Source of the DNA: Longimicrobiales bacterium
Lineage (GTDB): Bacteria; Gemmatimonadota; Gemmatimonadetes; Longimicrobiales; Gaopeijiaceae
Assembly: GCA_963664435.2 (NCBI GenBank)
Contig: CAXXKM010000003.1
Span: 544,001 to 608,000, forward strand
Direction of reading: 5' to 3'
DNA: 64,000 bases
In this document: one piece after another, positions 13,997 through 28,014 of the stretch
Layout: each line of letters starts with the position of its first letter
Numbering within the stretch: position 1 is the stretch's first letter
The notes under the pieces: model-generated
Database searches by the model: none
Told to the model about the DNA's origin: nothing
The model's input: only the letters and a program-made list of their open reading frames with translations
Position numbers and translations under genes: made by a program

Positions 13997-15255
13997 GCCG
14001 CTGGAAGCAGTGGATCAAGGAGCCGAAGGGCGCGCTGCCGGGCGGCATCATCACGAAGGCGGGGATCGCGCTGATCGGCGTGCTCATCGCCGGCATGCTG
14101 TTCTCGTCGTCGCTCACGGGTCCCGAGGAGGACCCGATGGCTCCCGCCCCTTTCGAGGCGCAGGCCGTGGACGACCGGGCGGGCCGCTCGTTCGAAGGAC
14201 GGCTGCGCGCCGAGGCGGAGCGCCAAGTCCTGCGGGCTGCGGCCGACGATGCCCGCGCCGACAGCGAACGCCGCCAGGCCGAGGCCGAGACGGCCGGTGC
14301 CGGTGGCGCGCGTGGAGCCGGAGGCGGCGAGCTCGGAGCGGCAGGCACGGAGGATGAAGCGGTCGGGATGGTCCAGGCCGAGTACGAGCTTCGCGAGGCG
14401 CTGCGGCTCGAAGAGATCGAGCGGCGGACGCGCTCGCTCCGCTCGCTGCCCGTTGCCCGGACCTACAGGGACCCGAACGAAGCGCGGGACCCAACCCGCA
14501 CGTCGGCGGCCGAGCCCGAGGCGCCCGAGGCGGCGCTCGATGCAATGCTCGCGTCCTTCGGACAGTCGGTCGCCGCCTTGGAGGCCGAGATGCAGGCCGG
14601 GATGGCGGCCGAGGGGCTCCTGTCCGGCTCGCCGGAAGCTGCGCCGCAGGGAACTCGCGTCCCCGGCACGGCGGACCCGACCCTCAGTGTCCGGCCGCTG
14701 GACCCGCCGGGCTGGGAGCGGATCCGCGAGGGCTCGTTCCTCGAAGCCGTGTTGCTCACCCAACTCTCGGGCGAGTTCCCCGGACCCGTGCTCGCGATGG
14801 TGTCGGTGCCGCTGTATTCGGCCGACCGCCAGCGGGTCCTCGTTCCACGCGGCGCGCGCGTCGTGGGCACCGCCCGGGCCGTGCAGGACCGCGACCAGAG
14901 CCGCCTGGCGGTCGCGTTCCACCGGCTGCTGATGCCGGACGAAAGCTGGATCGACCTCGAGTTCGCGGGGCTGAACCAGGCGGGCGAGGGCGCGCTCAAG
15001 GACCGGGTGAGCCGCCACTACTTCTCGACGTTCGCGGCCGCGGGCGCCATCGGCGCGCTCAGCGGACTCACGCTGGCCGGAGCCTCACCCTACGGCCTTC
15101 GGGCCGGCGTCGGCCAGGGGCTCGGAGGGAGCGCCACCTCCGTCCTCGACCGGTTCCTGAACCGGATGCCCGAGATCACGATCCGCGCCGGCCACCGGCT
15201 CCGCATCTGGTTCACCGCCGATGCCCTCATTCCCACCCCCGACCCACACCAATGA
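13993..15255 (+). CDS. virB10: VirB10/TrbI
   Basis: N-terminal TM, VLVPRGARVVG, GEGALKDRVSRHY, PEITIRAGHRLRI; true start at ATG 13993. Confidence 0.85.
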   Translation: MSRWKQWIKEPKGALPGGIITKAGIALIGVLIAGMLFSSSLTGPEEDPMAPAPFEAQAVDDRAGRSFEGRLRAEAERQVLRAAADDARADSERRQAEAETAGAGGARGAGGGELGAAGTEDEAVGMVQAEYELREALRLEEIERRTRSLRSLPVARTYRDPNEARDPTRTSAAEPEAPEAALDAMLASFGQSVAALEAEMQAGMAAEGLLSGSPEAAPQGTRVPGTADPTLSVRPLDPPGWERIREGSFLEAVLLTQLSGEFPGPVLAMVSVPLYSADRQRVLVPRGARVVGTARAVQDRDQSRLAVAFHRLLMPDESWIDLEFAGLNQAGEGALKDRVSRHYFSTFAAAGAIGALSGLTLAGASPYGLRAGVGQGLGGSATSVLDRFLNRMPEITIRAGHRLRIWFTADALIPTPDPHQ

Positions 15256-15901
15256 CACGAAAGGACTCTCCCATGCTTCACCGCATCCTCGCCCCCGCCG
15301 TTTTCCTTGCGCTGTTCACCCTTGCGAGCCCCAGGCCCGCGAGCGCCCAGTTTGACTTCGGCAGCTGGGTCCAGCGCGCCACGATCATCGCGAATCAGAT
15401 CAGGCAGATCTCGAACCAGGTCAGCCAGATCCGGTCGATGGCCCGCCAGCTCACCGAGCTCGAGGACCAGCTCGACCACATGGAGCGCGCCGCGCGCGGC
15501 GAGATCGACGCGCTGCTCGCGCCGTTCTCCCGGCTCGCCGCCGAGCCCGTGGGACTGGTGCGCGACGGACTCTCCTGGAGCGCGGACTTCCAGGGCGCGG
15601 CACGACAGACGGTCGATGCCGTTCGGGGCATGGGAACCGGCGGCCGCTCGTTCACCGGACTCTGGCAAAGCGCGAGAAGCACGGCCGACCGGGTGTCGGA
15701 AGCCGATGTCGTCGCGCTGTTCCGCGACTTGCCGCCTGGAGCCGCCACGCGGGCGGCCGAAGACTACCGCCGTGCCCGCGAAGCCGCCGACCGGCAGCGG
15801 GTGCTCGACTACGCGACGCTCGACGCGGCGTCCGCGCTCGCCGAGACCATCGAGAGCGCGCAGGGCTCGTTCGCCGGACTGACCGCGAACGGCAACCTGT
15901 C
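15252..15901 (+). pseudogene. VirB5/TrbJ-like gene, 5' part, interrupted at attL
   Basis: Signal peptide, Gln-rich helix NQIRQISNQVSQI; continues in frame at 27721. Confidence 0.75.
15888..15901 (+). repeat. attL core
   Basis: AACGGCAACCTGTC. Confidence 0.85.
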
Positions 15902-15953
15902 AAGAGAGCACCTAAGTCGTTGTGCCCATTGGACCATTGGCTCGCAGGCTTCT

Positions 15954-15978
15954 GAGATGCCCCCAGAGTTGCCCCAAT
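15954..15978 (+). repeat. Integrase arm-type sites (left)
   Basis: GATGCCCCCAGAGTTGCCCCAAT matches the right-end ATGCCCCCAAAAGATGCCCCAAT. Confidence 0.7.
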
Positions 15979-16162
15979 CGTGCAGTTGCTTCCAACAACC
16001 CCCGTCAGCACGGCTCGTTGCCCTTCCGGTGCTGGGCGCGTCCGCAGAGCCCGTCACCGAAGCTGGCGAGGGCCAACCGGGTTCTCGTGTTCACCCCGAG
16101 CACTACGGGACCGACGCCCGGATGATTCCGGGATTTACCACTGAGAGAAGGAGGACGGAGCG

Positions 16163-16399
16163 ATGACGAGTGTGATCGAACAGAAGAGGCAGGGGCAAGT
16201 GCGCTTTCTGCGGCTGCCGGAGGTGCTGGCCCGCACGGGCCTGTCGCGGAGCACGGTCTATGTACGGCTGGACGAGGGGCGCTTCCCCCGGCCGGTCTCG
16301 CTGGGCGGGCGCGCTGTCGGCTGGATCGAGTCGGAAGTGGACGAGTGGATCAGGGAGCGGATCGACGAGAGCCGCGTCAGAGACCAGCGGCCAGGTTGA
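16163..16399 (+). CDS. AlpA-family regulator / excisionase
   Basis: RFLRLPEVLARTGLSRSTVY...GRFPRPVSLGGRAVGW; AGGAGG RBS. Confidence 0.9.
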   Translation: MTSVIEQKRQGQVRFLRLPEVLARTGLSRSTVYVRLDEGRFPRPVSLGGRAVGWIESEVDEWIRERIDESRVRDQRPG

Positions 16400-16474
16400 T
16401 CGCCGCCGCTCCGTATCCTATCCTCCCCGTTCTCGAACCGTCTAGGCTGTTACCAACCGGAATGGAGACTACTA

Positions 16475-26233: not shown

Positions 26234-26326
26234 CTTCCCCGCAAGATCCCGAGCGGGATGGAGGGTATCACCCCCCCGACGGACCCGAGTAACTTAGCCG
26301 CCGAAAACACCCGGCTGACGCTACGA

Positions 26327-27547
26327 TTACCGTGAACGGCTCAGGACTCCGGGCTCGATCTTCCCGGCCCGAAGCCGGTCCAGATAGTTGGCCCAAGCCT
26401 GCATCATCACGCGCCGCTCGGGCAGGAACGCCGTCCGGTTGTAGGCCCGACCGTTGGGATCCCTGACGGCGTGGGCCAACTGGTGCTCGATGAAGTCGGG
26501 CCGGAAGCCCAGCACCTCGTCCAGAATCGTGCGCGCCATCGCCCGGAACCCGTGCATCGTCATGCGCTCCTTCGGGATGTCCAACGCCCGGAACGCGCTC
26601 CAGAGCGTGCCACGGCTCATCGGCAGTTCGCGGTAGGGAAACCGCGCGTTCGGGAAGACGTAGCGGTGGTGCCCTGTCATGGGATGGACCTCCCGCAGGA
26701 TCGCGACCGCCTGCCGCGCCAAGGGCACCACATGCGGCCTGCCGGTCTTCGTCACCGTGTAGCGCCACTCGGCCCCCTCGATGTCGATGTCGTCCCACTG
26801 CGCCGTGACCAACTCGCCGAGGCGCACGAACACCAGTGGCGCGAGACGGAGCGCGCACCGAACGGGAAGCGTTCCGGAATAGGTGTCCAACTGCCGGAGC
26901 AACGGACCGACCTCCCTCGGGTCCGTGATCGCCGCGAAGTGCTTCGTCTTGACGGGCGGCAGCGCCCCGCGCAGATCCGCCGACACGTCCCGCTCCGCAC
27001 GTCCCGTCGCCACCGCGTAGCGTAGCACCCGCCCGCAGACCTGGAAGACGGTGTGCGCCTTCCTCAGATGGCCGCGCGCCTCGACGCGGCGAACCACGGC
27101 CAGCAGGTCCGGCGCGGTGATGTCCGCGACCGGACGAGCGCCGAAGTAGGGGAAGGCTTCCCGCTCCAGCTCGCGCTCAAGCCGCCGAACCCAGCCAGTG
27201 GACCAGTTGGGCGAGTGCTTGGTCAGCCATTCGGTCGCCACGGCCTCGAAACTGTTCCTGGCCCCTTGCCGCCGGGACTGCTTTCGGGCCTTCCGGTAGG
27301 CGCTCGGGTCGACGTCCCGTGCCAGCAGCTTGCGGGCCTCGTCCCTGCGCTGCCGCGCGAGCTTCAGCGAGACCTCGGGATAGATCCCCATCGAGATCCG
27401 CTTCTCCTTGCCCGCGAAACGGTACTTGAAGCGCCAAGCCTTGGTGCCGCGCGGGGCGATTTCGAGGTAGAGGCCGCGGCTGTCGTAGAGCTTGCGGGGT
27501 TTCTCGCGAGGCTTGGCCTTGCGGATGGCGGTGGCTGTCAGTGGCAT
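26327..27547 (-). CDS. P4-type tyrosine integrase with arm-binding domain
   Basis: MPLTATAIRKAKP...GLYL, GIYPEVSL, FVRLGEL, HGFR, QLAH, AYNR. Confidence 0.95.
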   Translation of the reverse strand: MPLTATAIRKAKPREKPRKLYDSRGLYLEIAPRGTKAWRFKYRFAGKEKRISMGIYPEVSLKLARQRRDEARKLLARDVDPSAYRKARKQSRRQGARNSFEAVATEWLTKHSPNWSTGWVRRLERELEREAFPYFGARPVADITAPDLLAVVRRVEARGHLRKAHTVFQVCGRVLRYAVATGRAERDVSADLRGALPPVKTKHFAAITDPREVGPLLRQLDTYSGTLPVRCALRLAPLVFVRLGELVTAQWDDIDIEGAEWRYTVTKTGRPHVVPLARQAVAILREVHPMTGHHRYVFPNARFPYRELPMSRGTLWSAFRALDIPKERMTMHGFRAMARTILDEVLGFRPDFIEHQLAHAVRDPNGRAYNRTAFLPERRVMMQAWANYLDRLRAGKIEPGVLSRSR

Positions 27548-27600
27548 GTTGGGGCATCCTGTAAGCGCTGCGGAGATATGCCCCCAAAAGATGCCCCAAT
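27547..27600. repeat. Integrase arm-type sites (right)
   Basis: TTGGGGCATC (inverted) plus ATGCCCCCA and ATGCCCCAAT. Confidence 0.7.
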
Positions 27601-27720
27601 AATCACCGGGATGTCAAGAAGTGAGAGGGAATCGCTCTGGAGGTGGTATGTCTCGTAATTCCTTTGCTCACAACACTTATTGGGACTTCTGAGAACGTCC
27701 CTGAACGTCAATCGACAGAA

Positions 27721-27734
27721 AACGGCAATCTGTC
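27721..27734 (+). repeat. attR core
   Basis: AACGGCAATCTGTC, within the dyad GACAGA-N9-TCTGTC. Confidence 0.85.
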
Positions 27735-28014
27735 CAACACCGCTCTGCAGCAGGCCGGCGTCGCGGCCGCGCTGAGCCAGGGCCGGATCAACGCGGGCGT
27801 GGCCCAGGTGCTCGCCCAGCAGGCCGCCCGGGAGGCGAGCCGCGCGCAGTTGGCCGAACTCGCGCGGCTCGAACAACTCGCCGCGTGGAGCGAGAGCCGG
27901 GCGCGCGCCAACGCGATGGCGGGCACGCTTCGCGACGCGGCTTCCCGGAACCGGGGCGCGCTCCGCGACGGGCTGCTCTTGCGTGTCCCGTCGTTCTACA
28001 CGGGCGGCAACTAG
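27721..28014 (+). pseudogene. VirB5/TrbJ-like gene, 3' part
   Basis: NGNLSNTALQQAGVAAALSQ...; in frame with the 5' part after excision; precedes virB6. Confidence 0.75.

Follow-up and report, generated by a model that had tools for sequence, protein, structure and literature searches.

An integrative mobilizable element with defence cargo splits a TrbJ/VirB5-like gene of an ICE-like element in a Longimicrobiales bacterium

Excision restores the interrupted host gene in skin/sigK and in the Listeria comK prophage. Here we describe a related arrangement within a 64-kb stretch of DNA from a Longimicrobiales bacterium (the window; C3:544001-608000, C3 being one of the three contigs, C1-C3, of the 4.5-Mb, 68% GC source genome G000), in which an integrative mobilizable element (IME) lies inside a TrbJ/VirB5-like gene of a host element that encodes a type IV secretion system (T4SS) and resembles an integrative and conjugative element (ICE). 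The closest described counterparts are the IMEs of streptococci, in which Coluzzi et al. 2017 (PMC5357655) traced 12 of 16 serine integrases to traG, maff2 or snf2 targets in ICEs of the Tn5252 type; PPI and Tn1549 traG targets were added by Libante et al. 2019 (PMC7168690). A model in which the IME excises and restores the helper gene at the onset of conjugation was explicitly proposed by Coluzzi et al. 2017, who cite Kunkel 1990 and Rabinovich 2012 for skin/sigK- and comK-type switches (PMC5357655); the idea of gating by excision and repair is therefore not original to this study.

As with the streptococcal IMEs (PMC5357655, PMC7168690), the element is small, has a recombinase and a relaxase of its own, sits site-specifically in a gene of its putative helper ICE, and belongs to recombinase clades that differ by target. 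Unlike them, with their serine recombinases and Gram-positive FATA-type ICEs, it relies on a tyrosine integrase of the P4 type, which has an arm-binding domain and is paired with AlpA, occupies a TrbJ/VirB5-like target in a Gemmatimonadota VirB-type T4SS, and carries defence rather than antibiotic-resistance cargo. With GIsul2, the IncP island, SGI1 and PIMEs, which carry trbJ-trbK-trbL or traG/H/N (Guédon et al. 2017, PMC5704250; bioRxiv 10.64898/2026.01.12.698999), it shares int plus alpA, dependence on a helper T4SS, frequent defence systems and the involvement of TrbJ/VirB5; those islands bring extra pore genes and use chromosomal sites such as guaA, whereas here no pore genes are carried and a helper gene is interrupted.

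The integrase has the domain architecture of the P4/CP4-57-type island integrases (PRK09692; Arm-DNA-bind_3 plus Phage_int_M), and, as in those islands, alpA is part of the element. Classic P4-type integrases rebuild the 3' end of a tRNA gene on integration, and the target stays functional; in the window, by contrast, a protein-coding target is cut in two and only 14 bp are shared. As in skin/sigK and the comK prophage, a site-specific recombinase disrupts a gene whose frame excision is predicted to restore; there the genes belong to the host chromosome, whereas here a mobile element interrupts a gene of the very mobile element on which it depends. The mobilization genes follow the ColE1-type Mbe module, with MobC/NikA, then a relaxase aligning to full MbeA, and an MbeD-like open reading frame (ORF) nested in another frame; unlike that plasmid module, they are part of an integrated element and are distant relatives by score.

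A full-text literature search, with supplementary tables outside its scope, returned no IME in virB5/trbJ and none such in Palauibacter or Longimicrobiales. To our knowledge, all previously described satellites inside helper conjugation genes involve Gram-positive ICEs and serine recombinases, and we know of no demonstration of a switch in which excision repairs the helper. New here are the recombinase class, the derivation of the lineage from tRNA-targeting integrases, the target gene, the phylum and the defence cargo; nesting in helper ICE genes was already known. The locus and its relatives represent a second, independent system of satellites inside helper conjugation genes, in which the 14-bp core is clean, both halves of the gene are intact, the same genome offers natural empty sites, and sister integrases have other targets in the same ICE. 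They provide material for studying how recombinase specificity shifts from tRNA to protein-coding genes, whether satellites govern their helpers or simply parasitise them, and how defence genes (McrBC, restriction-modification (R-M)) travel among uncultured sponge symbionts. The organism is itself uncultured and sponge-associated, the IME is presumed to be active, and the general idea is already in print.

The split gene and its predicted restoration

The IME is bounded by two direct copies of a 14-bp sequence. The pattern AACGGCAAYCTGTC has exactly two plus-strand matches in the window, at 15888 and 27721, and was matched in none of 100 shuffles. The left copy, AACGGCAACCTGTC, and the right copy, AACGGCAATCTGTC, are spaced 11,833 bp apart and differ by a single C/T mismatch; both encode N-G-N-L-S in the frame of the flanking ORF pieces, the Asn codon being AAC in one and AAT in the other. 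The split gene is flanked by a TrbI/VirB10 gene, which ends at 15255, and a TrbL/VirB6 gene, both assigned by Pfam (Table 1).

The joined reading was taken from intact paralogues in the source genome, used as a natural control, and not from splicing the two window pieces. With both pieces as queries, tblastn located three uninterrupted paralogues of 306-309 aa (C3:1163312-1162383, C1:724109-725032 and C1:1583703-1582783), which are 77-86% identical overall to P0001. In that order, their N parts are 86, 95 and 78% identical to the window's 216 aa and their C parts 100, 92 and 73%, the full match of the window 3' piece lying at C3:1162676-1162386. Two of the paralogues read ...LTANGNLSNTALQQ... 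through an unoccupied 14-mer (C1:724745, with C, and C3:1162676, with T), so the predicted 309-codon restored ORF has the form of the intact alleles. An initial annotation, made from the window alone, had reported the 14-bp repeats with their synonymous mismatch and had claimed that removing 11,833 bp yields a 309-aa ORF between virB10 and virB6; the first was confirmed, and the second is borne out by the three intact paralogues, which show the predicted junction. A whole-window BLAST places each of the four gene copies in its own T4SS element; these four paralogous elements share 78-96% identity over ~30 kb. The flanks (10-16 kb and 28-36 kb) have a GC content of 0.69-0.74, as against 0.595-0.63 for 16-23 kb, a drop that, together with gene content, fits an inserted element.

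Taken together, the sequences support the prediction that precise excision would rebuild the split gene in frame. The best explanation, to which as a whole we assign a probability of roughly 0.7, is that the IME was inserted by tyrosine-integrase site-specific recombination into a conserved 14-bp loop-coding sequence of a TrbJ/VirB5-like gene in an ICE-like element, that its lineage is dedicated to this site, that excision rebuilds the gene and mobilization proceeds via the helper, and that, while the IME is integrated, this ICE copy cannot make the full-length TrbJ-like protein.

A second occupied site is found in G014, a genome of another species of the genus. Its element has an integrase, AlpA, MobC and relaxase 95, 84, 86 and 90% identical to those of the window IME and a different cargo (DUF3800 and the S and M subunits of a type I R-M system), and it too interrupts, at the same codon, a virB5-like gene lying between virB10 and virB6, although this gene is only 75-76% identical to that of the window. 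In alignment, the two elements are ~92% identical through both arms, and the G014 cores are AACGGCAACCTGTC at attL and AACGGCAACCTCTC at attR. An attP core of AACGGCAACCTGTC, with strand exchange within AACGGCAA and target-derived differences to the right, would fit both genomes. The ICE left of the IME (window 7146-15901) most resembles the C1 copy (95-96% identity), and the ICE right of it (27721-36451) most resembles the C3 copy (96.5% identity, with no difference in the first 294 nt). The window ICE copy may therefore be a recombinant joined at or near the element, and an exchange of this kind between ICE copies, close to or at the att site, may be an alternative source of the C/T difference in the window.

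The motif ATGCCCCMA has six matches in the window, where 0.75 would be expected, and four of them lie within ~100 bp of the element ends. Of the arm-type repeats proposed at both ends in the initial annotation, the repeats themselves are present and conserved in G014, and their role as arm sites may be regarded as a candidate one.

Target sites of related integrases

To survey the integrase relatives, integrase loci were scanned in one genome per species. This yielded 79 loci, 12 of them with integrases at least 84% identical to that of the IME, 23 at 78-83% and 44 at no more than 61% identity; among 61 related genomes, six hold a close integrase. At six of the 12 closest loci (L023-L027, L029), the C part of the target gene (NGNLSNTALQQ...) lies 174 nt from the int start and is followed by virB6, virB8 and the gene for a 310-aa protein. 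L043 has a decayed copy of the target gene and L031, by our own reading of weak tblastx matches, a diverged look-alike; at L022 and L028 the core is kept and unrelated sequence follows, and the integrases of L030 and L053 are truncated. Integrases of at least 88% identity occupy this codon in six or more other genomes; for those 92-97% identical to that of the IME, the number of other genomes is at least six, and six of eight occupied sites examined retain an open C part followed by intact virB6 and virB8.

The protein databases show the same break. Among 22 proteins in a 50%-identity library, at least seven are N-fragments that end in ...ANG(N/D)LS and carry a tail like the read-through tail in the window, and three are C-fragments with heads matching the translation of the window attR arm. 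Occupancy within the genus is low: the gene is carried by 11 of 19 genomes, as 22 full-length copies, two copies split at the site (window and G014) and five fragments.

The integrases at 78-83% identity have other neighbours. At seven of these 23 loci, the neighbouring sequence is the N-terminal 317 codons of the ICE gene for the coupling protein; three (L040, L041 and L044; four by eye) adjoin sequence like window 36327-36443, near the ICE right end, and 12 have flanks of no named identity. Neither a tRNA nor an Rfam family was found at the junctions of these 12, the other 11 of the 23 being outside that scan, and an Rfam scan of 14 loci with integrases of unnamed target found no RNA family at the junctions, the only match being a group II intron at L060. 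No tRNA gene was found beside a close-homologue integrase at any of the 18 loci scanned, a set that excludes the six loci with an intact virB5-like flank. None of the 44 loci at no more than 61% identity, which are mostly from Proteobacteria, has a T4SS flank. At 34 of 38 of these distant loci (46-61% identity; five short-flank loci and one with a partial int were left out of the scan), a tRNA or tmRNA gene ends 160-375 nt before int.

A quick maximum-likelihood tree of the integrases was computed with IQ-TREE, leaving out partial sequences and labelling the targets of L031 and L043 by our own reading. The tRNA-flanked integrases fall on one side of a branch, and a Gemmatimonadota clade of 33 (support 100) is nested among them. 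Within this clade, the virB5 site defines a clade of 11 (SH-aLRT 99), and six of the seven integrases at the coupling-protein site form a clade of six (support 99). These comparisons show that the integrase lineage is dedicated to the trbJ-like site in this ICE family.

Split genes recur in the family. Genomes G061-G063 contain numerous fragments of the coupling-protein (VirD4) gene, which is broken near residues 306-317 and near 562-567. On contig C1 of G061, a 14.4-kb element with an 81%-identical integrase (L101) separates coupling-protein residues 53-317 from 308-741; its junctions share TGCACCGGC (9 bp), and without it the sequence would read ...WIVELHRLLPGGW..., matching the intact gene in the window. 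On the same contig, a 4.1-kb element with a 29%-identical integrase (L102) separates residues 3-567 from 561-741; the junctions share GAGTACCAG (9 bp), and removal would read ...CDEYQAFATVG..., with the frame restored. In the source genome, virB9 of the C1 ICE copy (C1:719318-722520; corresponding to ~13660 of the window) is interrupted by a 3.2-kb insert that encodes both a tyrosine integrase of 407 aa, 31% identical to that of the IME, and a 283-aa protein that by eye resembles Mrr at its N-terminus. The window insertion is thus an example of something that recurs in this ICE family. Going further, one might tentatively propose, as a joint scenario that is doubtful in its entirety, that in sponge-associated Gemmatimonadota one P4-type integrase clade left its ancestral tRNA targets and radiated onto the trbJ-like gene (codon ~215), the coupling-protein gene (~317) and a site near the ICE right end, that unrelated integrases (~30% identity) hit the coupling-protein gene (codon ~565) and virB9, and that together these would form a guild of satellites, with defence-type cargo in those examined, which reversibly switch off helper conjugation and whose excision is wired by read-through into alpA or int. 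If true, this would be a tyrosine-recombinase, Gram-negative-type 'matryoshka' control of conjugation that evolved independently of the streptococcal serine-recombinase case.

Identity of the split gene, mechanism and alternatives

TraC/VirB5 proteins have a helical-bundle fold. The AF2 model of the protein (39-sequence alignment, pLDDT 74) is all-helical, with three long helices, at residues 36-97 (modelled at low confidence), 162-212 and 218-288, plus a small helical insert at 107-156. The att core corresponds to residues 213-217, in the loop (…ANGNLS…) between the last two long helices, so the 216-aa N fragment lacks the whole terminal helix. The target is also the most conserved stretch of the gene (consensus ...N.S.TAL.QA...), with L221 near-invariant across homologues at 27-62% identity. 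Foldseek and VIA-align comparisons with the PDB returned generic helical hairpins only, none at E ≤0.001 and with Z of at most 9.1 (the noise range for helical proteins); no VirB5/TraC/TrwJ row was among the matches listed, and CagL ranked 36th (E 2.3). Sequence searches of the PDB with an intact paralogue and with a 39-member profile gave best E values of 1.2 and 0.01, both to unrelated proteins.

Among 39 diverse full-length homologues (27-62% identity), four matched TrbJ_Ti (best 2.1e-8), three PRK13874 TrbJ, one VirB5 TIGR02791 and two DUF4141, the TrbJ/VirB5 matches being sub-threshold; the 5' piece matched NCBIfam TrbJ models at E 7e-4 and 2.5e-3, far below their cut-offs. The only TrbJ-profile candidates in the source genome are the four copies of the split gene, and its Atlas neighbours include clusters with a DUF4141, PF07996 or TrbJ name, which serve as leads only. 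The split gene, coding for ~300 aa, stands directly upstream of TrbL/VirB6, as trbJ before trbL. The same order is seen in three reference TrbJ-like genes of other Gemmatimonadota (L104-L106), which reach E 1e-13 to 1e-19 against TIGR02780 and are each followed by a TrbL-like gene. A signal peptide ending in ...ASPRPASA before QF was read by eye. The host element has recognisable VirB2, 3, 4, 6, 8, 9, 10 and 11, VirD4 and an integrase; no other VirB5 candidate was recognised by Pfam in the T4SS operon, the split gene being its probable VirB5 equivalent. A tblastn search of a plasmid collection with P0001 and the TrbJ-matching homologue P0161 gave no match. The name thus points to a remote relationship based on synteny, weak profile matches and shape, and, being below the curated cut-offs of the hidden Markov models (HMMs), the gene is called TrbJ/VirB5-like and not a family member; we nevertheless think it quite probable that it is the functional equivalent of TrbJ/VirB5. 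The initial annotation as virB5-like has remote support from synteny, the signal peptide and the weak TrbJ/VirB5 profile matches, and it finds no backing in Pfam or at the curated cut-offs; the HMM and structure check proposed with it ended in a sub-threshold TrbJ match and an all-helical model with generic fold matches only.

Two observations on homologues of the gene may be added. P0135 and P0171, both metagenome predictions, have foreign N-termini joined to virB5-like sequence at about residue 83-85, the part in P0135 being AlpA-like; these joins may reflect either a second insertion point in the split gene or chimeric assembly. The virB5-like protein and the integrase have close homologues (L027, L053) in metagenome-assembled genomes labelled Gemmatimonadota, Acidobacteria, Gammaproteobacteria/Pseudomonadales and Chloroflexi, either because the ICE family crosses phyla among sponge symbionts or because mobile contigs were mis-binned.

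Canonical VirB/Trb systems need VirB5/TrbJ, and islands of the P4/CP4-57 type excise with the help of AlpA-family proteins. The alpA gene of the IME points the same way as the T4SS operon, begins 262 bp beyond the attL junction behind what by eye is a good ribosome-binding site, and encodes a protein 61% identical to the C-terminal AlpA domain of the ICE regulator upstream of the operon. A terminator scan of 15000-16600 found no terminator-like site, a weak negative in a 68% GC genome. No T4SS or coupling-protein family was found in 15902-27720 among the scanned ORFs (GC3-filtered ORFs plus a few extras), and the IME must accordingly borrow those of a conjugative helper. If the IME is still active, transcription of the ICE T4SS operon could read through attL into alpA; induction of the T4SS would then lead to IME excision, which would both repair the gene and supply a circular substrate for the IME relaxase, and the excised IME could be mobilized through the repaired or a paralogous T4SS. 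Transfer may in this way be gated on IME excision.

Several results weigh against the reading preferred here. The split-gene protein matches NCBIfam TrbJ_Ti TIGR02780 over its full-length span at only E 0.0013 (18.2 bits, cut-off 100.55), and neither piece nor an intact paralogue has a match in Pfam, PF07996 included. The hhalign match to the reference genes L104-L106 (probability 89%, E 2.1e-6) covers 70 N-terminal columns only, signal peptide included. No relaxase family was found in the ICE backbone (3.6-39.6 kb) among the scanned ORFs. At three of the 12 close-integrase loci (L022, L028, L043) the flanks are decayed or foreign, which would be expected were some insertions dead ends. Three further ICE copies with an intact gene are present in the genome, so gating of transfer is at most partial; the paralogous copies could complement the split gene in trans. 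For a streptococcal IME in SNF2, no excision was detected though the ICE transferred (PMC7168690).

The excision data are likewise ambiguous. The element is represented, in whole or in part, in 20 public runs, all available as contigs; most of those that carry a label are sponge metagenomes. Excision was checked in assembled Logan contigs of four runs at ≥97% identity. One contig of X15 joins 15896 to 27730 (skipping 11,833 positions; depth 29; 46 letters on the shorter side) and represents the empty-site form. The paralogue at C1:724745 differs from the excision product by one base in 40 on each side, so a paralogous ICE with a vacant site would account for this contig equally well, and all it shows is the coexistence of empty sites in the community. 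Among the joints listed for the contigs of the four runs, none is a circular (attP) junction; contigs drop rare forms, and the missing junction is therefore no evidence against excision. In X1, X16 and X2, flank cover is low or uneven and uninformative on excision. The read search proposed for the empty attB and circular attP thus gave one ambiguous empty-site contig and no circular junction.

Considering the alternatives, the repeats could be due to chance, or the insertion could be the secondary-site accident of a tRNA-targeting island, as the tRNA and tmRNA neighbours of the distant homologues might suggest. Because close integrases use the same codon elsewhere and, among the loci scanned, tRNA targets are seen only in distant ones, the insertion is not such an accident; the survey of homologues, which had been proposed as a check, contradicts it through the codon shared across genomes and the tRNA survey, and none of the 100 shuffles gave the repeat. 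We reject this explanation as extremely improbable. A different concern is that the split gene encodes another periplasmic accessory protein of this T4SS and not the VirB5/TrbJ equivalent, which would account for the low TrbJ score, the missing Pfam and PDB sequence matches and the generic hairpins of the fold searches. This appears rather unlikely, given the trbJ-trbL synteny, also seen in L104-L106, the signal peptide, the length, the fact that all profile matches that do appear are to TrbJ or VirB5, and the lack of another VirB5 candidate in the operon.

Two further views concern what the insertion does. Under a strict regulatory switch, the helper ICE would build its T4SS only after the satellite has excised, so that every transfer-competent cell would hold the circular, mobilizable satellite. 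In-frame restoration with both gene pieces still open, the position of alpA behind attL without an intervening terminator-like site, and the same model proposed for streptococcal IMEs (PMC5357655) speak for it, as do the sister elements that split the coupling-protein gene at two fixed sites with 9-bp frame-restoring repeats, which suggests recurrent targeting of essential conjugation genes. The three intact paralogues speak against it, only two of 24 complete copies in the 19 genomes of the genus are occupied, and the essentiality of the remote TrbJ-like protein is assumed from canonical VirB5/TrbJ; we regard a strict switch as tentative and on the whole unlikely. Alternatively, the IME could be a parasite that tracks its helper without any coupling, the conserved ICE site marking the helper and sparing the host chromosome, with loss of the ICE gene as collateral damage or hyperparasitism and some dead ends aiding ICE decay. 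Targeting the most conserved stretch of the gene is what maximal attB availability would favour; the site of one sister clade (L040, L041, L044), near window 36327, falls outside the recognised T4SS genes; each genome has numerous ICE copies and fragments, and the decayed or foreign flanks at L022, L028 and L043 point the same way. Against this stand the occupied sites, six of eight of which keep an open C part with intact virB6 and virB8, and the IME itself, which is intact with all backbone genes open. Uncoupled parasitism is also, in our view, a doubtful account.

Gene content of the IME and its host element

The features of the IME and of the surrounding ICE are listed in Table 1.

Table 1. 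Coordinates of the annotated features in the window (E values unless stated otherwise)
Feature	Position	Strand	Evidence or remark
ICE tyrosine recombinases	4090-5202 and 38372-39535		Pfam
ICE regulator with C-terminal AlpA domain, upstream of T4SS operon	9570..10121	+	Pfam Phage_AlpA 1e-20
VirB2/TrbC	10118-10405	+	Pfam TrbC 7e-17
VirB3	~10430-10710	+	Pfam VirB3 1e-8; exact start inferred
VirB4	10707-13163	+	Pfam TraG P-loop 5.6e-15
VirB9/CagX	13160-13996	+	Pfam CagX 1.6e-26
VirB10/TrbI	~13993-15255	+	Pfam TrbI 1e-32; exact start inferred
5' piece of TrbJ/VirB5-like gene	15252..15901	+	216 codons plus core; current ORF continues into element to 16166
attL core AACGGCAACCTGTC	15888..15901	+	same core at G014 attL
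attL-side repeat pair ATGCCCCCAGAGTTGCCCCAA, candidate arm-type sites	15957..15977	+	one ATGCCCCMA (15957) plus degenerate neighbour; conserved in G014
AlpA-family gene, candidate excision factor or activator	16163..16399	+	Pfam Phage_AlpA 2.5e-23
McrBC-type restriction module: McrB-like AAA_5 GTPase, McrC	16475-18226, 18230-19309	+	Pfam AAA_5 3.5e-23 (82.6 bits), McrBC 4.9e-25 (88.6 bits), both above cut-off
Cargo ORF, 292 aa	19426..20304	-	no family
Type II R-M pair: methyltransferase, endonuclease	20388-21830, 21910 to ~22548	-	PADLOC MTase_II 1.5e-141, REase_II 1.6e-98
MobC/NikA	23165-23503	+	Pfam NikA-like 2.3e-14, MobC 2e-13, above cut-off
MbeA-like relaxase	23493-25058	+	Pfam Relaxase 28.4 bits (cut-off 24.6)
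ORFs overlapping relaxase: first ORF; MbeD-like, nested in another frame	24226-24726; 24736-25014	+ (module)	MbeD_MobD 1.3e-5
PadR-family regulator	25913..26209	-	Pfam PadR 2.2e-10
P4-type tyrosine integrase, 406 aa, open ORF	26327..27547	-	Pfam Phage_int_M 2.5e-32, Arm-DNA-bind_3 1.4e-26, Phage_integrase 3.7e-15
attR-side repeats ATGCCCCMA	27549..27599		27549 (-, inverted, beside int start), 27578, 27591; conserved in G014
attR core AACGGCAATCTGTC	27721..27734	+	AACGGCAAYCTGTC pattern match
3' piece of TrbJ/VirB5-like gene	27721..28014	+	97 codons and stop
VirB6/TrbL	28027-29004	+	Pfam TrbL 2e-12
VirB8	~29001-29693	+	Pfam VirB8 8.8e-12
310-aa protein, no family	29690-30622	+	conserved
Coupling protein VirD4	30732-32957	+	Pfam TrwB_AAD_bind 6.6e-8
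VirB11	~32954-33967	+	Pfam T2SSE 5.3e-49
ArdC	34158-35195	+	Pfam ArdcN 4.5e-33
300-aa protein, no family	35203-36105	+	conserved

That the insert (15902-27720) is an 11.8-kb mobilizable, defence-carrying integrative element is well supported. The initial annotation had described it as a mobilizable defence element with an intact integrase ORF, and both points agree with the genes found: relaxase, MobC, integrase, McrBC and R-M genes are present, and the integrase has an open 406-aa frame with the expected domains and catalytic residues. The latter (R-K-H-R-H-Y) were seen by eye in VRLGEL, TKTGRPH, HGFR, LAH and AYNR; against NCBIfam PRK09692, the integrase scores 1.1e-68 (231.7 bits, below the 434-bit cut-off). 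The relaxase aligns over the full MbeA NCBIfam model (2e-28, 99.8 bits), far below the 500-bit cut-off, and is therefore considered a distant relative of MbeA. The type II R-M pair reaches 333 bits against NCBIfam NF052465, above the 290-bit cut-off. The PADLOC scan gave no McrBC-named match, and the 292-aa cargo ORF had no match in Pfam, NCBIfam or PADLOC. The IME is single-copy in the source genome, with paralogues only for two of its modules: that of the McrBC module, at 88% DNA identity, lies at C3:1182047-1185151, and the Mob module has about ten copies, 73-87% identical. Just downstream of padR, window 25552-25896 holds four to five tandem 69-bp repeats that encode 23-aa repeats (…MMEGIRRAEENARRTLRALDCSP…) in a minus-strand ORF.

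For the host element, the label ICE appears reasonable, given its T4SS, coupling protein and integrase, although no relaxase was recognised among the ORFs scanned in its backbone. The source genome has about ten MobC plus MbeA-like relaxase modules, most of which lie beside tyrosine recombinases like that at 38372-39535. The 310-aa protein encoded after virB8 belongs to no Pfam or NCBIfam family, and the ESM Atlas gave only unnamed clusters. Its homologues are encoded just downstream of the integrase, on the opposite strand, in the sister-clade loci L039, L047-L049 and L101; from this placement, the protein may be a shared transfer or mobilization factor.

An IS630-like insertion sequence of 1,140 bp (DDE_3 transposase) has at least nine near-identical copies in the source genome. 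One of them, at window 6010-7149, interrupts an ICE cargo gene, and another, at C1:725032-726171, lies at the stop codon of the intact virB5-like gene in the C1 ICE copy, before virB6. The type I R-M genes HsdM and HsdR adjoin the ICE (window 43502-47314, minus strand) and are matched by a paralogue (89.5%) on contig C2. Cargo specific to the window ICE copy includes a class-3 lipase gene (36512-37930).

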